Below are positions 4,587 to 49,029 of a stretch of DNA of 64,000 bases, piece after piece; within the stretch, counting starts at the first letter, position 1; the number at the start of each line of letters is the position of its first letter. Under the pieces are notes generated by a model that did no database searches, was not told the origin of the DNA, and saw nothing but the letters and a program-made list of their open reading frames with translations. Source of the stretch: Phoronis australis. Lineage: Eukaryota > Animalia > Phoronida. Position numbers and translations under genes: made by a program. Location of the stretch: NCBI GenBank assembly GCA_002633005.1, contig NMRA01000897.1:42943-106942 (forward strand), in the 5' to 3' direction.

Positions 4587-7500
4587 CTAGAAAAAAGAAA
4601 ACCGCACTAATGCCAATTCTTCACTTATTTAGCGTACAAAATGGCCGATAAGTGAAATTCTATTTTTTTAAAGTTCTCCACAAAAATAAACATTAAGAAA
4701 CCATAAGTCTGTTGCTAGCATGGTTTGTACTCTGTTGATTTAATAGAACAACTTTTTGTAATTTTTTCATTTTATGCATTATTAAAGTAATCAGCCTTTT
4801 GCTAAACAGAACAAGAGCAACGCAGAGCGTTGAAATGCGCCCACAATTGACCTATCGCAAGCTCCGCCCCTATGCGAAAAGTCACGTGACACCCGACATT
4901 CGAACGAGATGTCAGAGGCAAATACACTGTCGCTAAACGACGTTCCTGGTGAAATCGATGAGTGTTTTTGCACTATTTGAAAACGCGTCGACAGGGACAA
5001 GAGGCGATGCTTTTCAACAGTGAATCGTACGTTCATGATATGGGAATTTGTAAAGGTGACGATGAAAAAATAAGTGCTCGAGGAGCCAGACAAAATCCGA
5101 AGAACCCCTCGGCCTCGGGGCTACCTTCACCTGCAGGGCTCGACATAACGAGCTGCAGGTCGCATTTGCGACCTGAAATTTGGAAATGCGAGCTGAGATT
5201 TTTGTCAGCTCGTATAAAGTCACAAAATGCGACCTGGAATTTCCAACGAATGCGAGCTGAGTTTTTACACTTCTCAACAGATACCTGGCAAATACAAAGC
5301 AGCTCTTGTTAATCCGACCGTTATTTGGTTGTTGCCAAATACAAGTTCAAAAGAACACTAACAGGCCTCCCGATGACTTGTAAGCAAGTCGCGTGATCAT
5401 GGGATATGCAGAATCAATCTTTGACGCGTTTCATTGGCTAACACTTTCGGCCACTTTTGTAAATTCCCGGATTCGTCGAGGAAAGTTTCGGGCCACTGCT
5501 TACACGTGATAAAACTTCACATAACAACGGTGTTTCTATTAATTCTTAAGTGATCAACTTACCAAACTTTGTGGTGGACAAAAATGCTTATTTTTCGCAT
5601 AAGANNNNNNNNNNNNNNNNNNNNNNNNNNNNNNNNNNNNNNNNNNNNNNNNNNNNNNNNNNNNNNNNNNNNNNNNNNNNNNNNNNNNNNNNNNNNNNNN
5701 NNNNNNNNNNNNNNNNNNNNNNNNNNNNNNNNNNNNNNNNNNNNNNNNNNNNNNNNNNNNNNNNNNNNNNNNNNNNNNNNNNNNNNNNNNNNNNNNNNNN
5801 NNNNNNNNNNNNNNNNNNNNNNNNNNNNNNNNNNNNNNNNNNNNNNNNNNNNNNNNNNNNNNNNNNNNNNNNNNNNNNNNNNNNNNNNNNNNNNNNNNNN
5901 NNNNNNNNNNNNNNNNNNNNNNNNNNNNNNNNNNNNNNNNNNNNNNNNNNNNNNNNNNNNNNNNNNNNNNNNNNNNNNNNNNNNNNNNNNNNNNNNNNNN
6001 NNNNNNNNNNNNNNNNNNNNNNNNNNNNNNNNNNNNNNNNNNNNNNNNNNNNNNNNNNNNNNNNNNNNNNNNNNNNNNNNNNNNNNNNNNNNNNNNNNNN
6101 NNNNNNNNNNNNNNNNNNNNNNNNNNNNNNNNNNNNNNNNNNNNNNNNNNNNNNNNNNNNNNNNNNNNNNNNNNNNNNNNNNNNNNNNNNNNNNNNNNNN
6201 NNNNNNNNNNNNNNNNNNNNNNNNNNNNNNNNNNNNNNNNNNNNNNNNNNNNNNNNNNNNNGGGGGGGGGGCGCTTATTATAACCCAGGGCGGTTGAAAC
6301 CCGGTCTCCGAAACAGGTGAAATCGGAAGCTAAGATTCATCAAATTTACGCTGTGTGACGTATATGTAATCTATGAAAGACTTTCAACAAAACTGTGGTG
6401 CATTGCTACCAAACTTTACTACTAAATTACGATCATGTTACAGAAAATTGTGCTGAAATCCCAGGGCGAAAACTCGCCGACTGACTGCCTCGAAATCGCC
6501 GTCTTCGATATGGTTACTTCAATGCTTGAATAAAAATTTTTTCGGCTCAAGCAAATTACCTAAAATCCTTATTAAGTTTTATAAGTAGCGTCTCCAAGAT
6601 TTTTTAAGTTCCCGTGGAGTCTGGATTAACGGCAGGTTTAAGTACAAATCTGTGCAACATCGTGCCATCTACATGTATGATCGGCAACACGGCGAGAAAA
6701 ATGTCTAGACGAACACACATGTTGTTGTCACGTGACGTTTGCTTTGAAGTTCGTCTGCGAGTAAGCGAGCGCGTGCGTGTCACCTGAGTTCATTTGCCAA
6801 AGCAAAGCCACGCAATCTAAGTAGCTAGATGTGTCTAAAGAAATTTGCACAAGCAGTAGGCTTAAACCAGAGTGTGTTTCATTCAGCACTTGCCAGTTGC
6901 GTGCTAAAAACTTTCAACATTTGTCTCGGTAAGGCCCATATTAGTCGCCGTGTAGCTGGAAGCGTACGTAACTATCTGACAGTCATTTTTCGGTGTAAGG
7001 GTGTGTAAGCATTCACTGTCAGTTGTCATTTTATCGGATATTCGGCTTAAAAACACCAATTATGGTTAATCAAACAATCTATCTCAAAAATAACGCAAAC
7101 ATGTTTCACCCCGGCCAACCCGCGATCGAGAACGAAATTTGGCGCGAGAAGCGAAGCCAGAAAATGTAAGTAAATTTGATGAATTTTTGGTTGTTTTGAG
7201 TTTCAATACGAAAACAGAGACATGAGTTCAAGGCGTAACACATTGAGGAAGGACAGGTAGAAGTTTAGACTTGTGTCTCGTCCAAATATTGGAGAAAAGT
7301 TACTTTAACCGATGAATCGCTTGAGCCGAAGTAGGCAATGACCATCGCCTCTGTTGGCCCGAACCAGAGGCGATGCAGAGGCTATAGGCGCTCTGTACGC
7401 CGGTTCTACATCAATATATTAATCATGAGGAAATGACGTATGAAAATGTAACCCAACGCTTGTTTTCCGTAGCATTGTCAGGATCTTTGATTTATGAACC

Positions 7501-7730
7501 TTTTTCTGTTAAAAGAAGCGATCGAGAACGCATTGATAAGCGATCGGGAACGCACATTTGAGTTCGCTAAAGCGATCGGGAAGGCACTGCGGTGTGTTGA
7601 ACAATAGTGAACTTTTCAGTAATAAAGAGTTTTAAAAGTTACAAAACAAGTGTGGTTCAATGAATTAATGATATTTTGCATCATTACTGTGTTGCTTTTT
7701 TGTTTAAAACTAAATTTCATAGCATAGCAT

Positions 7731-8032
7731 CCCATACCAAAAAGGCCTCCTGCAAACACTTGCGGCAAGCTTGCTGCAAAAGTTTCTGCAAATCAGCCAC
7801 AAACACATGGAATGATCTCTAGCCAGAAAGTTGTAGTAAGTTTCCTGCAACCCAGCCGCAAACATTGCAGCAAACTTGCTGCATGTTTGCCGCTAGCATG
7901 CAGCAAACTTTCACCATGCAAATGAAGTTTGCAGCAAGCTTGCAGCAAACATCTCCATGTCCTTATTTGGAACAGTTCCTGCAAGGCAGCTGCACACATT
8001 GCTGCAAGCTTGCTGCAAACATCTTCATGGGG
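7731..8032. repeat. MITE-like insertion built from repeated palindromic gcagcaagcttgc(t/a)gc motifs
   Basis: Many copies of gcaagcttgc/gcagcaaac in both orientations between cccat... and ...atgggg. Confidence 0.5.
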
Positions 8033-9036
8033 TTATATAGAAGTTTCTGCGAACCACCTGAAAAAATATTGCTGAAAGACTACAAAATACTTGAATTATG
8101 GTATGAATAATTTAATAAAAAATGTCCTTGGCTAATACATTATTTTTATTGTATGCCCACTTGTTAAAACAAGAAAATACAGAATCAGCTGCATACTCGA
8201 TTTAACATGATAGTTTTCAATCTTTTAATGTATGTCGACTAGAAATGAAATCAACATCACATGACAAGGAATAACAGAAACTACAAAAGTGTCTACAGTG
8301 GCAGTTAGTAATAATACTTGTATTACAATCAAAATTGTGTCTAAAGAGAACAACTAGAATGTATGCAAGCCTTAATTACAATATGCCAATATGTTTTATG
8401 CTTAACGCACGACAAAAATCTATGGTAATTGTAACTAATCAAAACTAACAACAGCAACACAGAGTGTTGAAATGTGCCCACGGCTGTGCCGCCTACGGGG
8501 TGTTAATCAGCATTGAAAATGGCAAAAAAATGTCGAATGCCAATAAAAAAACCCCATGAAATCAGATTTCCTCTCAGTGAAAATAAGGCATACTTAGCAC
8601 AACATGTCGAGCATATTAAAGTATTTTATTTTAAATTACCTCATTACTGGTCAACTAAAAAGAATCACTCTTAGCAAGTTGTATGTTGAAATTTGCAATA
8701 TTTCGACTAGGGATATCATCCAACAGCAACATTCATTTAGCTAAGGCATCAAACATAAATTAAACCTTTCCATTCTACAATATTTCTTAGGTGTTGAAAA
8801 GAACAATTACAGAGGTTGTCCAGTTATAGTCATACTAGTAGACGTTCTAAACACATTCTACTCCAGACTAATCTGTATTGCAGCAATCAGTGGTGTTGCA
8901 TAGGGATCGTGGGATGATCGCTCCACTTTTCTTCCTTAGCATATATTTCCATAAAATCACCATGAGCACTACATGTACAGCAAGCGTTATATTTTAGTTA
9001 TGGATATTTTCACAAATTATTTTATTTTTATTTCAG

Positions 9037-12000
9037 GAAACAATTTCATTGTTATTATTGCCCGGCAAGCTTCAACGACCATGAAAAAATCATTGCCCAC
9101 GCTGTGGCGGTGCCTTTTAGATGAAACTACTGGGAAAATGGGACTCTAAACTAAGACGCATCCAGGAGTTATTCCACGAGACGTATCAGCTGGGGGAAAA
9201 CAAATTGTTGCGACTGATGAAAGTGAGTGCCGAATATTTTTACAAAACTGCGACAACAAAAGAAAAAAAAACCGAACACGCCAGTGAAGTCAAGCAATGA
9301 TAGTGAGTTTGCCAAAGAAAATCTGAAAACAGATGAGACTCCCAGTAATGAAGAATTAGAGTTTGACAAGATGTGCTTCTTGCTTCCCCAAGTCATAGAG
9401 ATAATGAAAGAAAATGGTCTCATGGAATCTTACGTGAAACTGATTGCACTTCTTGCCTCAGGTAGACTGCCTTTGAACAACATATGTTTCCTACTATTCC
9501 TGGATAGTCGAGTGGTTTTCGGTGGAAAATACTTCCAAAATGCGTTACCAAAACCCACAAACTCTTCGGTTCTGGGAAATTGGCTACCAGCTATTTCATT
9601 GAAAGTTCATCAGATTTATGTCTGGACAACGAAATACAGGTCAGATTTTAGACCAGTCAACAGCAAGGGGAGAGTATAGCTCAGGTCAATTCAAAGTGAA
9701 CTTTGCAGTGCCATCTCTGACTACAATACAACATAACCTTTCTAAAAGGAGTCCGTTTTTTCCAGGAATAAAAAGGCAGACAATTGAAAATATAGCCCAC
9801 ACTTATGAAAGCTCTCCTGTAATTTTAGCTGTGGATGGAAAAAAAAATAAGTCGCGGAAAGGGCAAACGCATGGAGGATATTGACCTGTGGGGTTTTGAA
9901 CCAAAGCCAACTCTTCAGGAAAGATTGAACCAAGTTGAAAGAGAAGTGGAATTCGTGAATGAGCTAACAAAAGAAACGGATAGACTAATGACCTATAGTG
10001 TTCAGACCATTAGTGCAATACCCTCAACGTCACGTGAAAAAATTCATTCCGGACTCGTTGAATTGATTAAGTTCATAGGATATCGTAATAAAACAATGAG
10101 AGGCACTGAACAGACGCTAATTCGCTCTGAAGAGAAGTTCAAGCGACTCGGCGGAGATGACTGGATGAAATCCAAGTATTTCCCGGTCATCTCTTTAATG
10201 AGGACAAAACGCAGTGAAATTCGTGCCCACCTAAAAGGTCTTCAGCTGTCAGACGAGATCACAAAATTGGGAATTGACCTAAATGGGAAATCAAACCTTC
10301 ATTCCGAGAAGTTAGTTAAGCTTGCAGAACAACAGAACTTTTATTCACTGAACCCAAACTTCAATAAGTCGACTGATCCACGTTATATGCAACAAAGAAC
10401 CCCGGAGTGGTTTTCTTTGCGCAGCGAAGCGAAAGTTACTGGAAGTACAGCCAATTGTGCACTCGGCTTAGAGACCTTAAAAAGACAAAAAGAACATTTT
10501 CACCAAGTAATTCATGGCATAGAAAAACCTCGTCACAGTGCACTTAACACTCAGAGAATGCTTTATTTAACTGAACACGAACTGGATGCAGTTGCAACAA
10601 TGACATCTAAAGTATTGCCGTTTCTGTTTCCAGAACTGAGCTATTATGAAGAAGGTTGCCAAACAATACCTCACGGCGACAAAGCAGCATTCATGGTAGT
10701 GAGTTCGGATGGCAGTCTCAGGACAAATGATAATGCAGAACCAATAATGATGTATGAAAACAAGTGCAAAGCACCCCAGTCCTATAATCCTAACGCATAC
10801 TACAAGATTCCTAAATATTACGCTGTACAGTTACTCTCTGAGATGTTTGCTTACAGATGTGACAAATTACTCTTTACGTGCTGGTCAGAGACGTCACTTA
10901 CTGCTTTCATGGTTAATTTCGACCATCATCTATGGGGAATGTGCTCGGAGGAAATGACAGAAGTGTATGGCAGTCCAAATCCAAAGCTACTTACTAAGTT
11001 CAGACCTAGTCGAAAGCTCATCCAAGAACAAATCGCTGCATTTATGGAGAATATCATCCACTTTCTCGGTGAGTTTATGTCGTGTGTTGCTGTGAGATCA
11101 CCATCGTCAGACGTCCAAAGTGATGACGCTTATATATCGCCACAGAGTTCAAATGACGCCAAGCCAATTTCTACAGCTCGAGAGTTACAGAACTGCCTTG
11201 TGTCGACGAAAAACTGGATTAATCGGGCTCATCAGTTGTCTAGGACAACTGCATCCGAGATTCTGGTCTACATGGTGAACGGTTTAGACCGGACTTACCA
11301 TGCCGAAATAAATGTTGCTTATCCTATAGCGTATGCAATGAAGGGAACAAGCATGAATAATGCCACCTTTAGAAGTATGATGAATCAAGTTATCTCTGAA
11401 TGTGAAGCAAGGGGGTCTAAACGTGCCGGCCACGTCTAGTGATGGACAATGGCATAAGTAAGGAGTTCGCGGTGATGACAACGAACCACTGACTGTCTTG
11501 CAATTACAGAAAGATCACTGGTCAAGTGTGATGTCACAAGATAAGAAGACGATTATGTCCCAAATAAAATCTAAAGCAAGTGTAAAGAGTTTTCCTGAAG
11601 ATGTCCAAAAAGAGTACAATGTCAATGGTTCCGTGACTGTCTGGCACAAGAAAGATTCATCGATGACTGGGTATCTAAACACAGACCACTCAAAATCCCA
11701 GAGAAATGCAATCATTGATGCTACTTGCCAGAACAGATATGATGGGACTGAATCTCAGCTGTTATCTGTAAAAGAAACATGTCTCGCACTTTTTGAGGAT
11801 GAACACTTTGAAAACACTTCTCTCGAAACTCTAAATGCTGTTGAAAATATAATTGAAAGCTCAGTAACAAATAACGTGCAGAATTTGCATGAGTTCCTTG
11901 GACAGGACTATTTTGTCGAACCATGGTTGTTCCAAGAAGAACCAGGTGCTACACACAAAGTTTTGGCGCAACATCTGACGTGCTCTTTGGGGCTTTTGAG

Positions 12001-14438
12001 GCCATGTACATTAATGGCCATGACGACTTCTATGTGCAAACTGTGATCGATATGAGTGTTGATAAAATACCTTTGAGAAGAGATGGTGACCGTATGGAAT
12101 TGGACGAAGAAAATCTCAACTACACAGTATATGCCAATGATGACAACACATGTGTGGACACAGAACATGTACTTGAAAGTAAGGAGAATGGAAATGCGGA
12201 GCTGTTAGTTTCCGAGAATCGTTACGCTGTGGACACTGCAACGTCTGAATCCATGCTGAATGCTTTAAAAGCAAATGAAATGGCTGAAAACTATCATAAA
12301 TGGTCACAAAAAACTGTTGAAGACTTCAAAAGACTTTTTGCATGTAAGACCACTTGCAATAAGGCACTCCACAAGTTTGAACTCCAGATATGTCTACAAG
12401 TGTTACGTGTGCAGCACGGTGTTTGTTTTGACATTAAACCCTCAAAGAAGGAGCTAGTTCAGTTGTTCACGTCTACATTGAACTTTGGGGTAAATCCCCC
12501 TAATAGGAAGTATCATCAGCGCAATCGAAGTGTTTGCTCACTTAGAAAAATGTGTTGTTCTGTTTTAGAACGTGCATCAAAACAAGAGCTTGCTAAGATT
12601 CTCGCAGAAAACACATGGGATAAAGCTTTACAACAGTGGATTGAATCTGGACCATTGTACCACACTTCGTGTTTTCTTGATAATGAAAAGAGTATGAAGA
12701 ATTGGTTTTCTCGTCCAAGTACTGACCATTACGGCAAGAACAGGTTCCACTTCACCGACGCCTGTCACATTTTGACTTGTATTAGGACAAAACTCTGTAC
12801 TACTGGAATTGCTGGTTTAAAGCGAAAAGCATGGGAAGATGTTGCTCTATCTCGCAAAACCCATCTCAATATTGCTGTGATTGAGGATTGCGTTGACAAG
12901 CAAGATGTAGCTTTAGCAAGACGTGTATTTTCCAGGGATGTTCAAGAAAATATGCTTGACGAATATGTCAACGAGAAAGAATTTTGTGAGTTAATACGAA
13001 ACTGGTTTGATGCCGAGGACGAGCCTGCCATACCTGCTGCTGAAAGATGCATCCGAAGGCTTCGACTTAGAAAATGGCTTTTAGAAGAATTTGCAGTGAA
13101 CACGTTTCCGCCACAAACCCGATATATCAGAGGCATACCGATACAGACTTTCGAGGCATTGTTGGTGCACTTGGAAAGGAAAATGCAAATTTTCCCTTGC
13201 TGCAGAAATCAAACATATAATGTTCGTATAATAGGTTCTCAGCAGGTGGAAAACTTCTTTTCAACATTTCGAGATATGGACTCCACTGGACAAGGGACAC
13301 CAAAACCAGACTCCATTCCTCATATGATGACAGCAGTTGCAGATTTAGACTACTGCAGAATTGACCCCAGCAGGAAAGCAAGATTTAGAATCAAGCTTGT
13401 TTCCTACACATGATTAACTGTAAATTACGCGGACATATCAACTCTCATGTTTGATATTTTACAAAAGTGTTATTTTTCAGTTAAAATTTTGAAGATGTGG
13501 CAACAAAACGCTCCCTGAATAAAAAATGAAAAAATGTTTCACATACCTATCCTCTGAGCTGTGACGGGAAAAAAGTTTTGAGGGCGATGTAAGTGTAAAT
13601 TTATTTTCACACAAGGGCTCGTATGTATAATCAAAATAGGAACTAGTTGAACTGTAAGAAATTATATTAATTTAACAACTAGCTTGTCAGGTTTTGTAAG
13701 AGGTGACACTAAGAATTTGAATTGTTTCAAATGCATTCACGTTTACATGTTTAATCTTCTATAAAACCCCCTACTTGGTTTCAGATCATTCTATATGTCA
13801 ACCACACGAGCCGGAGTGTATCCAATGAGACAGTTTGAGTCCGGTGAAACCCAAGAATGTTTTCACGGCCAAACGCAAGGCATTCATTCTGCATTAGTTT
13901 TTAGTCTGATAACTCCAAGGTTAGTGTTATGTGATACACGTTAACTGTAATTGTTATCTTATATACATTACTTTTTTCTGTAGTCAAATTTCTCTTTTTT
14001 CGTCTTCATCTATTCGTTATCATAATGTCGCGTATTAGTGCTGATAAAGGTACGTAAAGCACCATTGTTTTAAAAAATATTCAAATCGTGGCATTGTCAA
14101 ATAAGCAAGGTCTTCATGAGCGCCGGGTCAAAAATACCCTTCAATAAATAAACGTCCAAGCGCTTATGCGTCATATTACGGTATTTCCACTACTTTGAAA
14201 ACAGTGGCAAGTGTAATGCAGCTCACAGGCTAGCGTCGAAAGCTTTAAAGGAGGATTGATTACTCATTAAATTTTGAGACCTCATAAGGTCGTAACCCTT
14301 CGGAAAGGAGGGAAAGTGTCGTTGCCAAGCGAGTCCGCCCATAGTGAGAAAGGAGTGTGACAACACCATTCGCGAGATGACTCGAAGATACCTGCTCATA
14401 AACGACTCGGATTTCAAAATTTATCAGAAGTTGTGTAG
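9037..14438 (+). pseudogene. Decayed spliced P-element/THAP9-like DDE transposase with an internal YqaJ (lambda exonuclease-like) domain and an N-terminal zinc-finger remnant
   Basis: Joins ORFs 9227-9679, 9618-9884, 9835-11439, 11498-12046 and 11923-13413 through frameshifts. Motifs in order: FHCYYCPASFNDHEKIIAH (~9045-9100); ILAVDGKK (D1, 9834); QQRTPEWFSLR..KVTGS, EHE, SSDG, ENKCK, YAVQ (YqaJ, ~10390-10930); ATSSDGQW (D2, 11441); HFTDACHILTCIRT (D(2)H, 12757-12768); DKQDVALARRVFS (~12895); SQQVENFFSTFR (E, 13249). Likely further exons at 13785-13919 and ~14270-14438. Contains in-frame stops and an apparently mutated GA donor at 13374. Confidence 0.8.
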
Positions 14439-15116
14439 CCAAAAGTATTGTGGTGATAAAAGTGTTGGGATTTTGTTTAATGGTTTACTAATAACATCCA
14501 TACAGAGTTGAACAGACTGACTTGCTACATCCTTGAGGCTTGTATGTGTTTTGTGTTCTTGGTCCCGAGTTCACTGTGCTATAATTTCAGTTCATGGGAC
14601 ATTGAAAAAGAGTGAGAGGAGTTGTAATACACATACTATATTGTGATTTTCTCAAAACGTAGTGACAATGTTGTCTTTAAGTCATTTCAAGACACACTAT
14701 AGTAACTACACTGGAAATCAACAATATGAAAGCAAAATTCCGTAATAATAGTAATCTTTTAATCACACATCATCTCAAAATACGTCATAAAAATATATAA
14801 AATATAGCTCTGGGTAATCAACATTACAAAAGAATCATTGAACATTCCCCATGAGGTATTTTTGGAATGCATTGCACTTATTATAGACACATATTTTCTT
14901 TTTAAAATCTTATGGTAATAACAATGGCCAATGGCACTTAGTATGGTCATTTGAATATACCTAAACACTACAAAAATGCACTGGTTCTGTTTAAGATAGA
15001 TAAAATAACACAAATGTAGAAACTTTAGAAAAAGGTTCAAAATACCACATCTGGCAACTACCAACCATAAACTCTTTTAATCAGAATAAAAACTTAAACA
15101 AATTTCACTACTGGAC

Positions 15117-15525
15117 TTAATGAAGCTTCTGTTTTTTGTGCCTACAGAGGGAGGCATAATGCTTGTACGATTTGCCGCATCCACAACAGAAAGCAGTGAC
15201 CTCATGTTGTGACGCCATGTGTCGCTTTAGGCTCACTTTCTCTGTGAAACATTGGTTGCAGGCATGACACTGAATTGTCTTGTCTCCTGAGCACAGTGCT
15301 TCATGTTGTGACTTTTTGTACCTATTGAAAAACTTCTTGCCACATGAAACACATGAAAATGCTTTGTAGTTTGCGTGCTGGCTCATGTGATCTTGAAACT
15401 TTGTTTGTCTCACGAACACTTTCCCACAGTCCGTCACTGGGCAGGTGAACGTCTTGGTTGCAGTCCTGTCACAATGCTTTGATGCCATGTGGTCAAGCAG
15501 TGTTGATTTTTTACTAAACGAAGCT
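15117..15525 (-). CDS. C2H2 zinc-finger array protein inside the transposon (4 complete fingers plus a partial upstream finger); 5' end not resolved
   Basis: CPVTDC..HMSQH, CVSC..HEALC, CHAC..HMASQH and C(C)GCG..HKKQKLH in ORF 15117-15488. Upstream in-frame SFSKKSTLLDHMASKH is the tail of another finger. Confidence 0.8.
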
Positions 15526-17108
15526 CAATAGTTCTTTGTCACAAGCACTAGTTCTCCTTTTTGAAGGTGTAGACGTTAAGAAGCTAAAAGACTTATCTTG
15601 TGGCAGAAGTTCAACTAAAAAATATCAAAAGCATTTCAGTTATACTTGTTAGGTTAAATCTCACAAAAATCATGAAAAACAGTGAAGTATAATAAACAAT
15701 CAACCCACCCGGCGCCTATTTCAGGGTACGTATTAAATGTAAAACTGACACAACACCGTAACTTGAACGAGTATTCAGGCCAATGCATAGAAAAAGAATG
15801 TGCGTTCACGATCGCTTTTTGCGTTCACGATCGCTTTTTTGCGTTCACGATCGCCATATGAAAGTAACGATTTCGTTCTCGATCGCCGTCTCACACAAGG
15901 ACAAGCTTGTATTGGTAAATATCTCGCATTGTTTCACAAAACATAACTTCGAAAGGTGTCACCTGGGGCAATGAAGCTCTAAACGTCACACTTCTTTACT
16001 TTAGAACTCTGGAACTGCTAATAACAAGTAAAACTTGTCGACTTTACGACGCGCAAGGCATTTTATCGGAAGGCATTACTTTCTGGGTCCTTTAGTTGAT
16101 AAAATAAGCAAAACCAAACATCATTTCAGATCGGCAACAAAGGTTAAGCTCTGATGCTTTTCTCTGTGTCGCATTCGTGCCAAAGTAGCCACTGTTTAAG
16201 AAGAAAATGACACTAAGACTCACCAGGTACATCATCGTCGTCTGCCATTTGTGCGGCAAAGTGTCGTTCTCGACCGCTTTCCGGTCGTTCCCGATCGCAG
16301 GTTGGCCGGAGTGTGTTTTATAGTCTTAGAAATTGTCGGAAATTAGCGCCAATATTCATTTCTTATCGATGCTATGCTACCCGTTTCATGAATGGATAGT
16401 TTCCAACTGTCTTTGATGACAGGTTCATGGATGTAGCGCGCGCTTCCTGGCCACGTGCGTTTAACATCGAGTTATTTTTATTCATGAGACAGTCGATGTG
16501 TACTGAAAGGTCAGACCATAGTGGGACGCGGTCGTCGCGAGAGCGTAGCAACGCCGTTGGGTTCTTTTTGAAGCGTTGCGTTACTTTGAAGTGTAAAGTC
16601 ACAAATAAATACAATAGTAGCAGTGCCGCTGGTGGTTTAGAAGACTCGTTTTTTGATAAATTGAAGACGTTACTGTAGCCGAGTTTTAGGACTGTAGGTA
16701 CGTCATTGTTCGCATATGTACACGTTCATGGACTGGGCGCTTATTTCTGCAGTCTGAAAACGCGTGGGGGGCGCTTATAGGGGCATGGGCGGTTATTACG
16801 GCGAATACGGTATGTAGTATGTTGTACTTTGCAAGATGGAAAGGCATCTGAAAACAGAGAATTAGCATCACATCATAAACAGATACCTGTATGCCAAATT
16901 TTATGAAAATACGTTGAGGACATTTGAACATACAGAGGTAAACGGAAAAAATAAAATTACCACTAGGTGGCACACCAGAAGTTAGCTCCGTCGGAACATC
17001 ATCGTCATGTGTTGCCAACATCATATAAATACACTTACTAAATTTGGTAAAGATCCTTCGAACGATTTAAAAGATACAACCATAGGCGCAAAAAACTGCC
17101 ACTAGGAG

Positions 17109-19528
17109 CATACATGTCAGAATGTCTAGTTGTACCCAACTAATCCCAACTTATCCTGTCATCACTACTGATGCAAGCCCGTTGCTGACATCATGTTTGT
17201 TATCAAACTGCCCCTGCAGGTGGCGCAGCTATTAGTGGGAATAGTTGAATTTGTTGAAACGCGTGATTGATGTCTCTAACATTGAGCTTGTGGATGACAT
17301 CATGTAAGTTAGCTCCCTGTCCACAGGTGACGCACTGATTAGTAGGAATCGTTGAATTAGTTGAATCCAACTAATCCCAAGTCAGCTCAACCTATCCAGC
17401 ACTGAGCTATTCAATTAATTCAACTAATTGTAGCGCCAGCTAAAGTATAACTGGCAATGTGAGACAGAAAAACCCGAGTCACTGACCTGCCTGCAGGTGG
17501 CGCAACAATAAGTGGGAATAGTTGAATTAGTTGAAATGCATGTTCTGTGTCAAGTTGAGAGCCTTTTGCTGACGTCATGATTGTTATCAGTCTGTTCCTG
17601 TAGGTGGCGCAGCGATAAGTGGGAATACTTGAATTAAGTTGAAATGCCTGATCTGAGTCTGTCAAGTTGTGAGCTTGGTGAGCCTTTTGCTAGCGCCATG
17701 CGCTTTATCTGTCTGCCTGCAGGTGGCATAGCGATTAGTGGGAATAGTTGAATTAGTTGGAATGTGGGTTCTGAGTTTCTCAAGCTGTGAGCCTGTTTCT
17801 GACATAATGTTTGTTATCAGCCTATCCCTGCAGGTGGCGCAGCGATTAGTGGGAATAGTTGAATTAGTTGAAATGTGGGTTCTGCGTTCCTCAAGCTATG
17901 AGCCTGTAGCTGACATAATGTTTGTTATCAGCCTATCCCTGCAGGTGGCGCAGCGATTAGTGGGAATAGTTGAATAAGTTGAAATGCTTGTTCTGTGTCT
18001 CTCACTTTGTGAGCCTGGTGAGCCTTTTGCTGGCGTCATGTACTTTTTCAATCTGCCTGTAGGTGGCGAAGCGATTAGTGGGAATAGTTGAATTAGTTGA
18101 AATGTGTGTTCTGTGTCTCTCAAGTTGTGGGCCTGTTGCTGACGCCATGTTTGGTATCAGGTCTGCCTGCAGGTAACGTAGCGATTAGTGGGAACAGTTG
18201 AATTAGTTGAAATGCGTGCTTGGAGTTGCTAAAATTGTGAGCCTGTTGATGATGTCATGTAAGGCGTTCTCTACCTGCCCACAGGTGGCGCAGCGATTAG
18301 TGGGAATAGTTGAAATGCGTGTTCTATGTCTGTCAAGTTGTGAGCCTTATGATTATGTGATAAACTTTATCTACCTGCTCTACTTGATCTACCTAACTTT
18401 ATCTACTCGTTATTTAGTGGGTCAACCCCGTAGGTGGCGTTACATGTCTGCCTTCAGGTGGCGTAGTGATTAATGGGAATAGTTGAATTAGTTGAAATTC
18501 GTGTTTGGAGTCTCTAAAATTGTGATTCTGATGGTGACGTTATGTAAGTTATCTACCTGCCCACAGGTAGCGCAGCCATTAGTAGAAGTATTTGAATTAG
18601 TTAAAATGCGTTTTCTACTTGATCTACCTGTTTCGTTGAGAGTTTGTATTATTTTAAGTTTGCCAGTTCTGCCCTCTGTTGTTTATTTTATGTTTCAGCT
18701 TGGCTACGCCACATTTATTGTTTTAGTATAACCTATGTCTTAGCCAGGACGAAATTTACAGCTACCCTGAGCTTTTCTCACTTGATTCTTGTAGAGGATG
18801 GATGTGTTTCAGTTACCTGCCAGTTTTTTAGTTGAAATATATGTCACAGCGTTCAAGAAAGTAAGTTTTTTTTGTTGGCTTATTAGTTGTATTGCAGTGT
18901 AGGTAATATTGTAATTTCTGACTTTTCTTATATTTAAAATAGGGGTAATTCTTTGGAAGTGAAGGTTCTCGTTTCAGAAACACGTGTTTTCAGAGGTGTA
19001 GTTTAGATTTCTTTCGACAGTTGGCGCTCTTAGCAGTACGTTTATTTCCGTTCACCGTGTGGCGCTGTGATTTGTTTATTTACATCCGGTTTTTGATTAG
19101 CGGGTTTGTGGCTTTGATATATGAGTTTGAATTGTACTTAGGGTTTTCATGACAGGTTTTGGATATTACTTACTTACTTACGTTGGTTTATTTGCTGTGA
19201 CATGCAGAGATTATTATTTCTTGTATTTATGGTGATTTTTGGTTTGTTTTCAGATTGAACTTCTTCTTCTAGACTTATACTGATGTCTGATGTAAAAATA
19301 AAGTTCCAATTTAAACGCTGCTGCTGTTTATTCACCCTGTGCGTGAGCCACTACCTAACCGTGTTTCTCAAGTCGTGAGTCGGTTGCTGACGTCATATAA
19401 ATTATGTACCAGCCCCCAGATGGCGCGGTTATTAGTACGTATAGTTGAATTAGTTGAAATCGGTTTAGTAGACCTACAGCTTCATATTAATCGATTAGTA
19501 GGTCCCTACCAAAGATTCTGACATGACT
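17109..19528. mobile_element. Non-autonomous TIR element carrying a ~120-bp satellite array, inserted in the HINE
   Basis: Short inverted ends catgtcagaat / attctgacatg. cactaggag is duplicated at 17100-17108 and 19529-19537 (candidate 7-9 bp TSD). Confidence 0.5.
17175..18620 (+). repeat. ~120-bp tandem satellite, about 11-12 diverged units
   Basis: The unit ...cctgcaggtggcgcagcgattagtgggaatagttgaattagttgaaatg...caagttgtgagcct... is repeated. Confidence 0.9.
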
Positions 19529-27686: not shown

Positions 27687-28657
27687 TACTGTACTCAGAC
27701 AAAATGACCTGTAATGGTTGTCATGACAGCTGGGCAGAAGCCGAATTCATTGTCACATTTTGATTTCAAATTCATGTTCAAATGATACATTTCGAATATG
27801 TGTGCACGCTAAAGTTGTCCTAGATATACAAAGGGACTCCATTCCTTCATAACTCATCCTAGTTCAATCCGTAGTACACCACATTGAATCCTGCAGGTAG
27901 ACAAATGACATAGAGAACAAACCGCAACTAAAAACAATCATCCACATTTTAAATAAAATGGAACCCAGAACTGGCTTATGGAAGTACCTGTTACATTTTG
28001 GAGCAACAAAATCCATTGGATAATAGAAGAACTTGTACCTTCTTGCTGGCCACAGAAAGATTCTACAGTACATTATCTATCAACTCAAATCTTCTGTTTT
28101 ATTATCAACATTCTTAACACTAACACAGCACATAGTAACATCCTACAGACATGTACACGTTATATGGTGCTCAACACAAAATGACAAGCACTGTAAATTT
28201 TAACTACGCCTTACCTTAGTTTTAACAACCTGTACAAATCTTCCTTTACCTCTGCATAGTAATCTGAAAATTTCATTAAATGTGAAGATTCATAATGGCC
28301 AGGTTTCCTCACAAAACCAAAACTCAATCTATAATGAGCCCATCAATCAGTTTATACACAGAAGGGGTGAAGATTAGTGCCATTGTCAAGACATTTCCTG
28401 ATTGCATTTTGCTAGGCACAGAGGGGATGCTTACAAGACCCCACATTCAAAACTTTAGTCCAAGTTTCTTAATAGGCTAGGTGCAGATTTGTTTTCCAAA
28501 AAATTACAGTAACTGCTGTGGTAGTCTTAACTTACCAAAAAGCATTTGACAGAATTCTAATTTTTACTATAAAAGCGAGTATTTAGCCCCCATGTTTTGA
28601 AAGCAAAAATTTCGCTCAAGTCAGGGTTTCACAAGCACATAACCATAACACTTTTAG

Positions 28658-28948
28658 TTTTTATGTGAATGTCTTAAACTACCAACTATTGAAAGAGCAT
28701 TTTATGTGAATGTCTTAAACTACCAACTATTGAAAGTGTATTTTATGTGAATGTCTTAAACTACCAACTATTGAAAGTGCATTTTATGTGAATGTCTTAA
28801 ACTACCAACTATTGAAAGTGTATTTTATGTGAATGTCTTAAACTACCAACAATTGAAAGTGTATTTTATGTGAATGTCTTAAACTACCAACTATTGAAAG
28901 TGTATTTTATGTGAATGTCTTAAACTACCAACAATTGAAAGTGTATTT
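28658..28948. repeat. 42-bp minisatellite, about 7 copies
   Basis: ttttatgtgaatgtcttaaactaccaactattgaaagtgta is repeated. Confidence 0.95.
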
Positions 28949-29877
28949 TTGTCCAACCTCAGGGTTTTATTTGTAGAACTTGCATTAAGTATTTAGTCCC
29001 TATTACAAACATCACTTGAATTTAAACTTTGAATTTCGAAGTTGAACTTAACAAAGACACAAGTTCACATCAGAAACAGAACAAAAATATTGAACACAAT
29101 AAAACAGCTCAACAAAACAAAAAAAGAACAGAGAGCACAGTCGTCCATGCAAGAAAGGTTTGATTGTTCATAACTCACTGCGGTCTCTGAATAGCTTATG
29201 TGTCTTCAAGCCACCAAATAAATCAGCGGCTATTTGAGACATCGGAAGATACTAAAACAATGTGCTAGATATAAAAATGACAAACTAATTGCTTTTAACA
29301 TGTAATTAAGCGGCGCAGGTAAAACAAGGGTCCTACTCGCTGAACCAGATACATTTCATTAACGTGGTCATGTGGGTTCAGCCTAAAAATGCCCTTAGGC
29401 TGATGAATTGCTGTTCACTGTTAATCTATTCAGAAACTAATAAGAGCAATACAAGACTGTTGATATACTGCGTGTAGCACAGATGACGATGCAAAAGACA
29501 GACATTTTCATAAGAGGAAGCCACTAAAGAACACCTAAAATCGGCTCTAAGGTCAAAGTTCAGTTATTCTAAGGTCACAGGCTCAGTTATTCCAAGTCAG
29601 AGAAGTCCTCTGGAAACTAAAAACATAGTTTCCAAAGTCTTAGGAACACCAATGATTCAAAAGCAGTTAGAAAGATAAAGATGCACATACAAAATTCGGA
29701 TTTGTCCTAAAATAAGCAAGTGCTGTCTTATCTTCAGTAAACACAGCTGCAAAATTTTACAGAGAATAGTCATTAAAGTGGTTTTGCACAAAGAAGATGG
29801 GGTAAAAATACTACAGATGACAGTAATTTGCACCTACATAAAAAGTGGGGCTTCTCTTGGTTAGCACGACCAGGCGA

Positions 29878-30180
29878 ATATTGAGTTGAACATTGCATAT
29901 TACTGTACAGTTATATTGATTTGAACATTGCATATTACTGTACAGAGTTATATTGTGCTGAACATTGCATATTACTGTACACAGTTATATTGAGTTGAAC
30001 ATTGCATATTACTGTACAGAGTTATATTGTGCTGAACATTGCATACTACTGTACACAGTTATATTGAGTTTAACATTGCATATTACTCTACAGAGTTATA
30101 TTGTGCTGAACATTGCATACTAGTGTACAGTTATATTGAGTAAAACATAGCATATTACTGTACAGAGTTATATTGTGCTT
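29878..30180. repeat. ~36-bp minisatellite, about 8 copies
   Basis: atattg(a/t)g(t/c)tgaacattgcatattactgtaca(ga)gtt is repeated. Confidence 0.9.
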
Positions 30181-38300: not shown

Positions 38301-41300
38301 TTACATGAGTACCAGATTACTCGCGATTGGTCATTGCAAAAGCTATAGAACTTTAAATCAGAAAATGTTGCAACTTCTGATTATGGGCCATGGCCAAACA
38401 ACCAGGAGACTATGTCTGTTGAAAGGATATCTTGTTTTGTTAATTTTGTCCAATCATCTTTCTGTCACCTGCTATTGCATTATTGGCGTTAATCAGGAAA
38501 GACAAAAGCAGGAATCAACTAAAAACTCGTACCCCTATCTCACAAATTAGACATTATGTTCCTTGGTCGGTGGCCTTTCCCACAGTTGCATGCAATTTGC
38601 TAAAAGCGTTCGTCATGCTTTTACTGTTTAGCAGACTTTGAAAATTCTTTTGAAATTTTCCTCCAAGTTTTGAGGATTTTCGATGGTTACAGAGCATTAA
38701 TTTGTTGCAGAGAACTAGGTGGGAAGTCAATTTTAGTATTTTACATTATTTTGAAAAGTTAATCCATTACTGGTTTTACGAAATTGGGGCCATTGCCCTA
38801 CATGACGGTAACTAATTTAAGGATGCTCTAGGTTATTGTTGCAAGCCAAAATCCAAATGGACTTTTTATACTACACTAAGAAATAAAAAGTTCACTCTGA
38901 CAGTTGTGCTTTCATCTCACAAAGTAACAATTGTGCACAAGCAAGTTTCAGTGCTCAGCTACAATTGTTGTGTAGCCTGTATGTCCCAATAAAGTCTGTG
39001 AAAATTTTTGTCCAAACAAAACTGTGCAACTCTGTCCACATGTCTCCCAAGATGTCCATGTTGCCCCAAGAAAAAGTTTCTGTATGCCTGATGTCAGTTA
39101 GACGCATTCTGACCAGTCTCTGGCTTCAGTGTCATCACATTTCGTTGCAGAGGCAAGTACACCTTCTCCAGGCAAAACACTTGGAAATCCTGAAAGCATT
39201 GGTAAAATATATTATCGTGCGGTTTCGCATTACTGTAGATTTGATAAGGAACATTTGTCTCTTGTAAATGAATTATATACAACAACAACTGGTTGATTGG
39301 GGTTGACATCCTATACTGGACAATCAAAACGTATAGAATTATTTTCATTATTGCAGACTGAACTCACCAATACTTTTGTAAATTGACATTTGGTTGGTTT
39401 GGGATGGGATTTGCTACTGAGATTTGATTTGAGTTCTTGGCCAGATTTGTTTTCCTTCAAAAAGTGATTTGAATTGTGTGGCTGTATATCTGTTTAAACC
39501 AATTGAAGACTCAAAAGTAAAGTAGCTATAGGAGTCTTTGAGGTCCTGGTGACATTAATATGAATCACCTTAAAAATGAAAAAGAGCAGACCAAAAAGTA
39601 CTAAGCAATTTTGTAAAATGTTTCCCACTGATATATGTAGTCTGTAGTCAATACTAAAAACTTTGTAGTGATTAAATTTTTAGACAACGGTTTAGTGAAT
39701 ACTTACAGGTAATAATGAAACGCAGTTAGCAGATTGCTTCCCACAGCACACTTTTATTTCTGGTTGGCATTTCTTGACACCTGTGACACGGGCACCATGA
39801 TGGATCTTCTGATTGTGCTGGGTAATGATCCAGTGAAGTGACCTGTGGTAGCCTAAATTCTAGACGCGGGGGTCTTGCTTGGCGACATCCAACATTAGGT
39901 CTCTCAATTCCTTCTTTTATTCATGCGACTGATTCGACCCTAAAGTGAGAGTAATTCAGTGACAACTTTCACAGTAATGAGAACAATTTTTATAACTTTT
40001 GTTTGTATTGTTGTAGGATTTATTTGCCAACAAGTACAAAGACAACCGCTGTATGACTATCAGATTGGAAATAATCTACTGGTTTAGGATTGGGTTTTGG
40101 ATTAATTCATAGGCGGATTTGGGGGGTGGATACGGGGCCTGGCCCCCCCCACCTGGCTGCCGCAAAAGAAGCAAAACGGCAAGAGCGCGAGGAAACATTG
40201 AGTCCACTAATTAATCTCGGTACTTAACATGTGGCTGTGAGGGGGGGTTGGCTCGGACCCGATCGTATCAGGGGACCTGCGTAAACGCCTTCTCATTTTT
40301 TTGTTTTTTTAGTCCACTGTTAGCTTTGTAGTACGAGGACCAGAAATTCGAGCAACACAATTTTTCGGGCTGGGTTCTCGCATTCAATCGTAAACCACAC
40401 TTGCCCAAGACAAAATGTTGCCCCCCCTTATGGTATCCTCGATCCGCCAATATAATTTAGAGATGCAGCCATGGAATCGTTTCTACCCCATGTACTAGGT
40501 CCAGAGCTCTATAATTGCAAACCCATGCTGTCCCAGGGCCTGGGACAGTGTCACGCAGGAAACTTATTTTTCGTAAGCAACTGATATCGTGCACCTCCGA
40601 GTTGTACATAATCTCCCAGAAGAGGAAACGTAAACAACCAAGCTCGACGAAGTCATGAATCACTAAGACTCGATTGCAGGTTTAAAATTGAACACAACTC
40701 ACGAGGTTGTAGCCTGTATATTATGTAATATAGACAAGTACACGGATACGTCGACTTCGAATGACTCAGGATAGCGACAGAAATAGTTGAGAGAACCGAG
40801 GTTCAGACCAAAATAATCTTGCTGTTTACGAGTAAGAATCAAGCTGTGATTTCCAAATGTTTGTACATTCTGATTTCTTGTTTAGCTGGCAAGAAGTCAC
40901 AAAACACCTAACTCACCTCGACCGCTTGCTTGACATGTTTGTCTTCCGTCAGCTGATTCGTGTGCATTATGGGTAATCTCTCCACTGGCAACCCCGCATA
41001 AATAATGAGGTTTGGCTGAAGGTCCGCACACTTTTTATAAATTTAAAAAAAGTAATAGTAAAATAACGAGAGTATGTACATCGCTGTAATTTACGAAAAG
41101 AGTTAATTTTAGTGATATCTTTCGATTGGCAAAGCTCAATTTGTGATCTAAGCAGGCGAAAGTAAAGGAAATAGTGACTTTAAGTACAAGTCTGTGCTAC
41201 ATCGTGCCATCTACATGTATGATCGGCAACATGAGAAAAATGTGTGGACGAACACGCATGTTGTTGTCATGGTGACATTTGTTTTAAAGTTCGTCTGCGC

Positions 41301-44088
41301 TGACTAAGCAAGCGCGTGCGTGTCACCAGAGCTCATTTGTCAGAGCAGAGACCGTCTTTTGGCCAGAACCACGCAATCTAACAAGCTACTAGAAATTTGC
41401 ACAAGCAGTAGGCCTAAACCAGAGCGTGTTTCATTCAGCACTTGCCGGTCTCGTGTACTAAAAACGTTCGACATTTGTCTCGGTAAGGCCCACATTTGTC
41501 GCCGTGTGACTAGATGTGTACGTGACAATTATTTTTTGGTGTAAGGGTGTGTACGCATTCACTGTCAGTGTCATTTTGTGGGATATTTGGCTTAAAAACA
41601 CAAATTATGGTTAATCAAACAATTCATCTTAAAAATAACGCAAACAAAATAGTATTTGAAACTGTCGGAAATAAGTGCCAATATTCATTTCTTGCCGATG
41701 CTATGATACCCATTTCACGAATGGATAGTTCCCAACTAATGTCTTTGATGACAGGTTCATGTATGTAGCGCGTGCTTCCTGGCCACGTGCTTTTAACACT
41801 GGCGAAGCTTTTTATTAGTCTTCGATTCGCGGTTTTCATGTGTACAAAGAAATTTGGATTCCTGTTGAAGGTGGGAAATATCTACAAAGCAATCCCGCAG
41901 ACTGAAAGGCCAGACCATTGGTCCTCGCAAGATCAGCAAAACTTTTGTGTTCATCATGGCGGAAGTTTGAAGTGTATAGTCACGGCTAAATACCGACATA
42001 GCGGCGAGGCTCGTGGTCTACAAATTCTGCTCACAATTTTTTTCAGGACTGCCAGATATTATTGATAAATGGATGACGTTACTGTAGAATTTTAGGACTG
42101 TAGGCGCTTATTTTTATAGCAAAGACTGAAAACGCGTGGGGGGGCGCTTATAGGGGCATGGGCGGTTATTACGGTGAATACGGTATGCAATCATTTACCC
42201 CATCTCAGTTTTACTCACGCGCCTAATCCCCAATATCGGTGCAGCTTCACATGTAAGTGTATGGACCTAAATTTGCAAATACGATAGTGATTGACAAGTT
42301 TAGATGGTATTAATTTTAACAAGCCAGGGTTCTATTACTATGAATCATCACATTATCTGCACTCAAGCAGCACCCAAAATTTGCAATGGCCCTAAAACCC
42401 ATTTGTGCTAGGCATATTCTAAGAACTCTAAATATGTTAAGATTTCATATAATAACATGCTAACAGGACCATGTTCCAAGCTAGCAGACACATACCGATG
42501 AAATTTCCTCAGCAAGCTTGACCTGTTCCCTGAATTCATCCTCTTTCTTGGAGAGCTGAAAATGTGCAAAAATGGTCATAGATGCATGTCCACATTTCAT
42601 CAATTTCCATCAACATGACTTCTCATTAAACGTCAATATAGTGTAGCACAGATTGCACATCAAAATGAACAAAAGGTGATGGCCTTAGATGGCGCCACCA
42701 CATTCAGAATTAAATCAATACTACCTGGTGATATCACTTTTTTCACATAGCAATTTAATATAGAAATTGAAGTTTTTGGCAAGTCATAGAGCAGGACTGG
42801 TGTAACTCAAATACATCAATTAACATTCTGTAGCTGATGGCCAACAAAGAGCACTGAGGTCATCATAATGGTACCAAACATGCTTTTACCTTCACATCCT
42901 AACCTATGTATAACAGATTCCCCAACTACAGAAATGTGACTGTGTACCAACCATTTCCGCAACAAAAATGAGAATGGATGTTGCAAGAAAATGAAATGTG
43001 ATGATGACATAACCCAAAGCAGTGCTATCTCTCATGCTTTAAGACCAGGGCTTGTTCTAGCAAAGACTGACACTAACTCAAGACAAAGACAGTTTAACGC
43101 AAGTGAGAATATCTGTCACTGGTGTAGCTGGAAAATGACAGGATGGTGGAAAAAAATAAAATGATCCCAAGAATGAAAAACAACGTTGCAAGATGCATGA
43201 AATTCTTTCAAAATATTATTAAAGTAATGCGAAAAGAATAATCTTTTTCCACCCAACATACTTTGGACTGCTGCCTTAGCTTTACTTTGTTTCTCTCTGA
43301 CCGTGTGTGTCTTTTCTTGATTTTTTGAAAGGTATCTTCAATCTGTCCTCTGTCCTTGGGTCCAGACATGCCTGAAGGCAGAAAAGTACAACAGGCAACA
43401 ATTTAGCTGTTCACAAAACTTCAGGTTTTTTGGTTTGTGAAATTACAGTGTTTATTTATATTAGCAAAAACACATGTTAAGTTTTGTTATACACAAAATT
43501 TGTAGGATACCGGAGGCATGCACACTCTACCAACCTTGTGTCCTGCCCGTTCTCAAATTGTCTTCTTTTTGGGAAACACCTGGCTGAGCGGAATTGAGAT
43601 GTTGTCTGAAAACTATAGAGCAAGATTGTTGTCAGTGACATTCACTAGTACATGAGAATTGCAATAATGGTGAAGAAACACAGCAGTAGCAGGACCGACA
43701 CTATGAGTCACAGCCAACTTAACATCCCGTCATAGGAATTACACAGTAACCAAGGTCTACCCATCCACCACAGTGTGTTTCCGCTCTTAAAATGATAAAA
43801 AATCCAGTAGTTTTAAAATTACAGAACCTAACCTTTCACAAAAAATCGATGATTTTATTTATACCTGCACTTGCTATCATCGTTGGAAGAAAATAATACC
43901 GGCCGATGCCTACCTTCTAAGATAGAATTTCGAAGTGTTTCTCTATCCCCAGCAGCTAAAAAGGAATGGTTTCTAACGTTGTGTTGATGCTCAGACTGTT
44001 TGTCCATATGTCCTGTAATGATATTAATATGATTGAGAACCTCAAAAACCACATCACAGAATTCAACACTTGAGTGTTTTGATGTTTT
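32398..44088 (-). CDS. Spliced gene of unknown product (possibly a pseudogene). Exons 44088-43865, 43605-43535, 43371-43262, 32454-32398; candidate further exon 30582-30327
   Basis: Each exon has AG/GT boundaries and the phases chain correctly (0-2, 2-1, 1-0, 0-0), giving KTSKHSSVEFCDVVFEVLNH...DDSKCR/QHLNSAQPG...RTQG/MSGPKDRGQIEDTFQKIKKRHTRSERNKVKLRQQSK/CAKATGNLLSTAITSDRLT. No known domain recognised. Confidence 0.55.
33633..41179 (+). mobile_element. Degraded Kolobok transposon (~7.5 kb) with transposase and KolX relics
   Basis: Inserted at the TTAA of ggtttaagtac (intact in copy 1 near 6635). Ends ttaa-ggcactatttcc / ggaaatagtgact-ttaa. Plus-strand remnants DKHEW...IEKGS..H (~35106-35290) and TRILLAIKDH (~35480). 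Minus-strand PSWCPCHRCQEMPT..CCG (~39740-39805) is typical of KolX. Confidence 0.7.
34546..34648. mobile_element. 103-bp hairpin MITE with 8-bp TSD (hAT- or P-type)
   Basis: cacaggcgtcctcagcttctgatcgtccctaatacactg...cagtgtattagggacgatcagaagctgagggcgcctgtg, flanked by GAGCAAAC at 34538-34545 and 34649-34656. Confidence 0.9.
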
Positions 44089-48452: not shown

Positions 48453-49029
48453 AATGGCGTAGTTGGCAAACGGATGATCTACGGATAAAAAACTGCCAAC
48501 TAGAACCCGCGGACCTCAGATGGCGCGCAAGGTTATGGCGATGGTAAAAATTCAGAGTCGAGGACCTGCAGAGAGGCAACCTTGTGTTCACCTGTGCTAT
48601 GGTGGTAAAGGTACCAAGGAAAGTTGATGACCTGTATGTGAGACAACCTGGTGTCCACTTTCCTGGTGGCGCTCCAATGGGGCTATTCGGAAAATTTACA
48701 TTAACTAGAGGGCATGCGTGTACTAGTGATGATAGATTAAGCAGCCTCGCTTTTGTGAGCCCTTTAAATACATGGTGAAATGGCTTGCAGTGTTGCCAAC
48801 TGAATCTGAGATTGCGTGAAAAAGGTGCAAGTAAGCATGACTTTATACAAAGGAAAGGTTTGTGATTATTTTAACAATTATTAGATGTTTATTCTACTGA
48901 TGCCTGTTAACTGAGGTACTCGCCGATGTCGACTTCGCGGCAGTTGCCAGTTGGGTTAACCTTTGTTGTGATGTGTGTTATGCTACTTGACGTAGCACTC
49001 GGGATCTTTCAGACATCAACACTTATATG

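Follow-up and report, generated by a model that had tools for sequence, protein, structure and literature searches.

What kind of DNA transposon carries a nuclease inside its transposase, and what would the nuclease do there? These questions are raised by an element within a 64,000-nucleotide stretch of Phoronis australis contig NMRA01000897.1; the whole of this stretch is referred to below as the window, and all positions are positions within it. A preliminary description of the element had proposed an undescribed lineage combining a P-like DDE transposase with an embedded YqaJ exonuclease, a zinc-finger partner, CAC termini and a 5-bp target-site duplication (TSD). We conclude that positions 7107–16313 are a complete but mutated DNA transposon of 9207 bp, and that it represents a large P-related lineage of marine invertebrates with an obligate internal exonuclease, a recurring zinc-finger partner gene and, on the evidence of one insertion, a 5-bp TSD. 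We read it as a two-gene transposon with terminal inverted repeats (TIRs), in which a lambda-type exonuclease inserted into a P-fold transposase would chew back 5' ends at the excision break, and give this reading as a whole a probability of roughly 0.6; the identity and architecture of the element, taken on their own, are very probable.

The limits of the element and the repeats close to its ends are as follows.

7102–7106: left TSD, TGTTT (from the sequence and empty-site joints)
7107–7135, plus strand: left TIR, 29 bp, starting with CAC (26/29 identical to the right TIR)
7516–7585, plus strand: three subterminal copies of GCGATCG(A/G)GAA, a motif also present in the TIR (from the sequence)
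15805–15890, minus strand: four subterminal copies of (GC)GATCG(T/A)GAAC, inverted relative to the left set (from the sequence)
16285–16313, minus strand: right TIR (26/29 identical to the left TIR)
16314–16318: right TSD, TGTTT (from the sequence and empty-site joints)

The coordinates, length, TIR identity and flanking TGTTT of the preliminary description all agree with the sequence, the terminal 29 bases running from CAC to GTG. Outside the TIRs, the GCGATCG 7-mer is found three times at 7518–7572 and four times in inverted form at 15809–15880; all nine occurrences of it or its complement in the window lie inside the element, and these subterminal motifs are likely to be transposase binding sites. 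Neither end of the element is matched with five mismatches or fewer by any other 20-mer in the window. A sister repeat at 41455–41798, 85% identical, had been put forward as an empty site, and it is indeed empty; however, it is four bases shorter at the site and lacks TGTTT, and is therefore unable to fix the length of the TSD. Public reads contain an empty-site joint that leads from 7101 straight to 16314, skipping 9212 bases (9207 + 5), with five letters fitting on either side, and the TSD of this insertion is therefore 5 bp. The joint is found in contigs of X1, X4, X5 and also X9, with none listed for X2, and 52, 59 and 55 raw reads from X6, X7 and X8, respectively, also carry it; fewer reads skip 9213–9223 bases, as expected from variants of the host repeat. 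The combination of CAC ends and a 5-bp TSD is thereby borne out for this one insertion and not for the whole lineage. The host repeat around the element (6637–7106 and 16314–16700; sister copy 41179–41798) is very high-copy, transcribed and non-coding, and reads cover it one to two orders of magnitude more deeply than they cover the transposase.

The transposase gene reads along the plus strand, and its parts are listed here with the conservation of the catalytic residues among complete relatives.

7164–7165, plus strand: predicted end of transposase exon 1, where a GTAAGT donor interrupts the start codon after its AT (from the sequence and the N-termini of relatives)
7728–9000: part of an intron, containing nested high-copy repeats (covered by reads several-fold more deeply than the coding region)
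9037–13373, plus strand: main transposase exon, broken (from the sequence, read contigs and relatives)
9834–9836, plus strand: catalytic D1 in ILAVDGKK, GAT at 9834 (Asp in 58/61; at the end of a beta-strand in the model)
10405–10845, plus strand: YqaJ/lambda-exonuclease core (W..R...GS, E, SxDG, ExK, Q), between D1 and D2
11441–11443, plus strand: catalytic D2 in SSDGQW (Asp in 60/61)
12757–12768, plus strand: DxxH signature, DACH (D and H in 61/61)
13249–13251, plus strand: catalytic E in QVENFFSTFR, GAA at 13249 (Glu in 54/61, with six gaps and one Gly)
13374–13784, plus strand: 411-nt intron whose donor is GA in this copy (3, 14 and 1 spliced reads in X6, X7 and X8)
13785–14423, plus strand: 3' transposase exons with a conserved G(V/I)R.H...DESK-like tail and one stop in this copy (from relatives)

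In order, the main exon encodes a C2H2-like finger, a helix-turn-helix (HTH)-like region, D1, a helical stalk, the exonuclease, D2, an acidic linker, DxxH, a P-type insertion domain and E. This copy of the gene is broken: 31 bases are lost at 9113 relative to other copies of the family, frameshifts lie near 9250, 9505, 9845, 11415 and 11950, and stops are present at 9600 and 11459. The motifs ILAVDGKK, SSDGQW, DACH, KQDVALARRVFS and QVENFFSTFR, all of which had been claimed for the main gene, were found there, scattered over the frameshifted pieces, and in the 3' exons 14301–14423 matches the relative P0016 (E 1.9e-4). The start codon seems to be split by an intron of 1.87 kb, as the predicted exon 1 joined to the acceptor at 9035–9036 gives M-K-Q-F-H-C-Y-Y-C, resembling the way in which relatives begin; the 7164/9035 joint is absent among the listed RNA joints, the intron being read from the sequence. 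Two repeats were noted within this first intron. An array of palindromic TTGCAGCAAGCTTGCTGCAA units at about 7750–8025 is likely to be a nested foldback-like repeat or one resembling a miniature inverted-repeat transposable element, and a short palindromic stretch at 7332–7403 is covered by hundreds of RNA reads that run off both sides, indicating a separate abundant repeat embedded in the intron.

The relationship to P is visible mainly by structure. PDB sequence-profile searches returned nothing significant, and the C-terminus is without any Pfam match. The preliminary description had expected matches to the P-type GTP-binding insertion and to YqaJ. The former (PF21788) was not found by sequence; YqaJ passes the cut-off in all four intact relatives scanned and falls under it in this copy (E 0.026). 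PF21787 passes the cut-off in two of 34 proteins, over the second half of the profile only. By structure, the proposed P-type core and embedded exonuclease both hold. The natural relative P0030 (1182 aa) was modelled with AlphaFold2 from 30 sequences (mean predicted local distance difference test score, pLDDT, 79.7). When the model was submitted to Foldseek, the best match was 6p5a, the Drosophila P transposase (E 1.9e-4), followed by LHK-Exo. The match to 6p5a (VIA; Z 24.6, 2.9 Å, 325 residues) places model residues 29–1180 on residues 165–569 of the chain; it crosses the insertion, and the separated pieces are therefore predicted to assemble into one P-type core. Residues of about 240–455 match LHK-Exo (Z 15.9, 2.4 Å, 172 residues) and lambda exonuclease (Z 15.2), and the best RAG1 match of P0030 has a Z of 9.4. 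The C-terminal 281 aa encoded in the window itself, folded separately (pLDDT 82.6) and compared with 48,161 chains, likewise match 6p5a best (Z 14.7, 5.5 Å, 209 aligned), against 6.4 for Transib, 6.3 for BbRAGL and 4.3 for Hermes. The P-type insertion domain is recognized by Foldseek (E 1.6e-4), and the nearest named ESM Atlas clusters to the C-terminal fold are those of PF21788.

Compared with P, this core is interrupted twice. D1 and D2 are 509–598 aa apart (median 540, from 49 of 61 complete proteins parsed), against 73 in P, with about 470 aa of stalk and exonuclease between them, and the distance from D2 to DxxH is 168–562 aa (median 375), against 36 in P, filled by the acidic linker (22–26% D+E in three proteins tested) and a helical domain. 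The latter, at about 11950–12530 (P0030 residues 794–932), is well predicted and has no equivalent in the canonical P transposase. As claimed, no THAP domain was found: there is none in 38 long open reading frames (ORFs) and no motif in the six frames of 7107–9120, the upstream exons of relatives lying outside the search. The N-terminus instead carries a C2H2-like finger in a subclade that includes this copy and a basic low-complexity tail in others.

The lineage to which this protein belongs is large. Word-index searches gave 41 relatives, and a profile of the C-terminal part (282 positions, eight sequences, exonuclease excluded from the query) matched 1210 clusters of 50% identity at E ≤ 1e-3, a number that falls to 778 at 1e-10 and to 346 at 1e-30. 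Statistics on members come from the best 150 of the 1210 matches plus the 41 earlier relatives, together 181 proteins, in which segments were located with profiles built on family members, so that a canonical P protein would go unrecognized. Of these, 61 count as complete, running from D1 through to the C-terminal domain, and the exonuclease lies between D1 and D2 in all 61. Among the 140 new proteins it lies there in each of the 40 that have both D1 and D2; 10 with D2 and no exonuclease are truncated, starting no more than 57 residues ahead of the D2 segment, and 60 consist of the C-terminal part only. No protein of at least 850 aa without the exonuclease was found among those listed. Intact relatives are ORFs of 1100–1700 aa. 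The exonuclease residues are kept in most of the 61 complete proteins (W 59, R 57, S 55, S 58, D 59, E 58, K 59, Q 55), with a mean identity of 32% across the domain. Exonuclease and DDE identities are correlated (Spearman 0.52), and of 15 exonuclease-tree splits with support of at least 0.95, nine are common to the DDE tree and one conflicts, which suggests that the two domains roughly share descent.

Named members come from molluscs, an annelid and an amphioxus (Mercenaria, Dreissena, Pinctada, Littorina, Batillaria, Owenia and Branchiostoma belcheri); among the intact copies are Bbelb_316380 and Bbelb_127970 of B. belcheri and LOC128558653 of Mercenaria. Near-identical intact ORFs (98.7–99.9%) occur on different contigs in all four clusters compared, for example four of 1608 aa (98.8–99.9%), three of 1587 aa (98.7–99.2%) and two B. 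belcheri genes (98.9%), and this suggests recent activity of the family. Scans of metagenomes and GTDB gave nine loci, seven of which end within 1.3 kb of the match. Matches labelled Ca. Thiodiazotropha or Sedimenticola lie on 2.6–5.3-kb contigs of metagenome-assembled genomes (MAGs) and are most likely host DNA; for the MAGs behind L007 and L009 only the same short contigs were returned. The loci L007–L009 are probably pieces of animal transposons that ended up in the MAGs of bacterial symbionts, where they carry the annotation 'YqaJ viral recombinase'. Viral contigs yielded no relative and no TIR pattern.

The second gene runs on the opposite strand.

15117–15614, minus strand: exon 2 of a convergent multi-C2H2 gene, frameshifted near 15530 (E 6e-13; opposite-strand RNA)
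16224–16248, minus strand: predicted exon 1 of the zinc-finger gene, encoding MADDDDVP, with a GTGAGT donor (from the sequence)

The zinc-finger partner of the preliminary description is thus a real minus-strand C2H2 ORF. Its predicted exon 1, which starts 65 bases inside the right end, is absent among the listed joints, and the transposase and zinc-finger genes appear to start at most 70 bases from the termini and to converge. A convergent multi-C2H2 ORF is also present in L003 and L006, the only two loci with more than 3 kb downstream (2/2), at 24–27% identity to the query. RNA reads are mostly 90–99% alike, and so come from the family and not provably from this copy; they are thin over the transposase. 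All spliced transposase reads are on one strand, and RNA over the zinc-finger exon (15050–15383) is on the opposite one (8.2/0.2, 8.1/0 and 16.5/0). Contigs of the majority type of the family are about 97–99% identical to this copy (e.g. 32 differences in 1208; 5 in 842), and a second subfamily is about 90% identical; Logan read depth was not used as copy number.

In the mechanism that we propose, the transposase would bind the GCGATCG repeats in and behind the TIRs, probably through its HTH-like region and without a THAP domain. The D-D-E site would cut the ends and join the 3' ends to the target with a 5-bp stagger; end cutting and 3'-end joining are established DDE chemistry, and the stagger is shown by the TSD of this insertion. 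The exonuclease, carried on its long helical stalk, would act on pre-existing 5'-phosphate ends, chiefly those of the flanking donor DNA, and such resection would tilt repair of the gap towards a homology-directed route by which the element is copied back into the vacated site, raising copy number. The C2H2 protein would probably be a DNA-binding regulator or targeting helper. We favour the donor side because the same nuclease class has been picked up by unrelated transposons; that donor-end resection steers repair towards copying the element back is a tentative proposal, to which we give slightly less than an even chance. In P, donor breaks are repaired by homologous recombination or non-homologous end joining (PMC7776569). 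In lambda exonuclease, R28, S35, S117 and Q157 form the 5'-phosphate pocket (PMC3239189), and counterparts of all four, mapped by motif order, are kept in the family, so that the nuclease would need a pre-existing 5'-phosphate end.

Most likely, then, the nuclease is an end-dependent 5'–3' exonuclease and not a TnsA-like endonuclease (compare PMC9527255). A TnsA-like domain would cut the non-transferred strand and give each chain two active sites, as Tn7 has in two proteins, but the nearest folds are the end-dependent exonucleases LHK-Exo and lambda exonuclease, the presumed 5'-phosphate pocket is conserved, and P-type DDE sites cut both strands unaided; we regard this as highly unlikely. A true exonuclease could also act on the transposon itself, trimming its non-transferred 5' strand to leave long 3' overhangs and so replacing the 17-nt second cut of P and perhaps its GTP. 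Indeed, a 5'–3' exonuclease yields exactly 3' overhangs, and P transposase needs 17-nt 3' extensions as well as GTP, which it contacts through D528, K385, K400, V401, S409, F443, D444 and N447 (PMC7776569). The essential D444 of P (PMC8230255) has a counterpart that is D in only nine of 61 proteins (E in 23, other in 29), as judged by motif mapping and not by residue-level superposition; the D528-like position varies as well, and the E-3 site is L/Q, not D. The presence of the insertion in 40/40 of the new proteins also favours a role of this kind. Yet F/Y (54/61), D at the N447-like site (56/61) and S (44/61) are kept, and by eye an acidic residue is often found at E-2. A processive exonuclease would, moreover, require a stop signal for end trimming, and the occurrence of the same nuclease class in ISL2EU and KolobokE points to a more general benefit, so that we consider trimming of the transposon ends fairly unlikely.

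It is also unlikely, in our view, that the element is already catalogued in Repbase or Dfam, as P or as an unclassified element with a 5-bp TSD, or that its exonuclease is neutral cargo. Repbase does curate repeats of amphioxus and molluscs, and nucleases are often carried as cargo (KolobokD/E/P, ISL2EU, some Dada), but catalytic residues kept at so low a mean identity do not fit neutral cargo, the names of members in NCBI and UniRef are uninformative ('hypothetical' or 'YqaJ domain-containing'), and none of DGQW, DGKK and DACH occurs in the Kolobok supplements (PMC9587614). No description of the architecture was found in the open-access literature, subscription journals, Repbase Reports and Dfam lying outside the search, and the earlier claim that the lineage is undescribed stands against open-access papers, with Repbase and Dfam not covered. 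Resection of donor ends by an end-dependent exonuclease is the role that we prefer.

Several points weigh against the interpretation given here. No TIR pair with a TSD was present in the five related loci scanned (L001–L004 and L006). L002 starts with CACATGTG followed by four GTTC(C/T)CGG repeats, a terminus-like arrangement without a partner end, and in L006 an inverted match of 12 bp, CACTCCTAAAAA, was dropped as a pair of termini, being two coding T-P-K-K motifs. Only the best 150 of the 1210 matches were seen, and there may be weaker-scoring relatives that lack the exonuclease; in a few members, such as P0038, it is degenerate (2–6 of 61 differ per site), so the domain may be dispensable. 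At a support of 0.9, six of the 22 splits in the exonuclease tree contradict the DDE tree, and the near-identical ORFs could be haplotypes or repeated assemblies. The C2H2 similarity to L003 and L006 is of a generic kind (E 0.008 and 8e-7, the database being tiny), and in X6 and X7 RNA covers both transposase strands, being one-sided only in X8 and in the spliced reads. The lambda and LHK exonucleases act as trimers (PMC3239189), which a transposase dimer is not obviously able to provide. The steps of the mechanism are proposals from sequence and predicted structure.

The rest of the window holds other repeats. A 505-aa ORF at 58732–60249 (minus strand) resembles, by eye, the RNase H/integrase part of a Gypsy-type long terminal repeat retrotransposon pol; a large nested, foldback-like inverted repeat of about 8 kb lies at 48676–56721, with arms 81–97% complementary; and tandem arrays at 17176–18621, 28618–28990 and 29872–30167 have units of about 111, 41 and 37 bp, respectively.

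With this element, ends, a TSD, a partner gene and transcripts are now attached to a large, old lineage (the 346 clusters of 50% identity at E ≤ 1e-30) that is labelled 'YqaJ domain protein' in databases and some members of which are probably mis-binned into symbiont MAGs. Lambda-type exonucleases of unknown role are carried by several transposon groups, ISL2EU being one for which this is stated (PMC4482050); here the nuclease is built into the chain of the transposase and there are intact copies that are nearly identical, so that its role is testable by a single point mutant. P0038, which is full-length with a degenerate exonuclease active site and an intact DDE triad, is a natural control.

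How does the element compare with known systems? Academ, with its XPG nuclease and TAG ends, was set aside on these general features alone. Transib and RAG-like transposons have CAC termini and a 5-bp TSD, as does this insertion, and ProtoRAG also has two convergent genes, but its partner is RAG2-like whereas here it is a C2H2 protein. P elements, too, begin with CA. The 'Transib-like ends' of the preliminary description are accordingly a resemblance of the termini only, and Transib/RAG identity was rejected, the fold being far weaker than that to P (6.4 and 6.3 against 14.7; RAG1 9.4 against 24.6). Of the groups suggested earlier as ones to which the element might belong, ISL2EU and, within Kolobok, KolobokE do not fit either. 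KolobokE (PMC9587614) also joins a DDE transposase of C/DxxH type and a lambda-exonuclease-like domain in one protein and has invertebrate hosts, but there the nuclease is downstream of the transposase, the TSD is TTAA, the ends are RR..YY and the core motifs are ADGSW/ADGDSS, whereas here the nuclease lies between D1 and D2, the TSD is TGTTT and the ends are CA..TG. ISL2EU, of the PHIS superfamily (PMC4482050), is likewise a two-gene animal transposon with a YqaJ exonuclease, but this is encoded by a separate ORF beside an IS5-like transposase with THAP, with an AT TSD and GG termini. Both identities were excluded by architecture (nuclease position in KolobokE), TSD and termini. The C/DxxH superfamilies are listed in PMC10045372. 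Some Dada elements (PMC3706591) do nest an exonuclease inside a DxxH-type DDE core; that exonuclease is of the DEDDy type with another fold, lies between D2 and DxxH, and belongs to an element without TIRs and with a 6–7-bp TSD in RNA genes.

The P superfamily (Drosophila P element, 1360/Hoppel, Galileo, THAP9; PDB 6P5A) is the closest. Common to both are the split RNase H fold, the triad of DDE residues and D(2)H after beta-5 (retained in the family at the frequencies listed above), the P-type helical insertion domain, the HTH-like region before D1, short TIRs with subterminal repeats, and introns. In contrast to P, the element has the two insertions (stalk and exonuclease between D1 and D2, and a second between D2 and DxxH), no THAP domain that we could find, only partly recognizable GTP-site residues, a second, C2H2 gene and, in this one insertion, a 5-bp TSD in place of the 7–8 bp of the superfamily (PMC3698922). 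Because two usual P features, THAP and the 7–8-bp TSD, fail, and because the grouping rests on fold and not on an outgroup tree, we call the element P-related and not a member of P. It is possible, although doubtful, that the lineage is a superfamily-level group, sister to P, in which THAP, the 8-bp stagger and possibly GTP and the 17-nt cut have been replaced by an exonuclease and a zinc-finger partner, giving a single-chain, two-nuclease transposase with its own end processing, recently active in molluscs, annelids and amphioxus. It provides the nearest structural comparison to P transposase with another TSD length, no THAP and possibly another use of GTP, and this comparison bears on the evolution of the unusual end chemistry of P.

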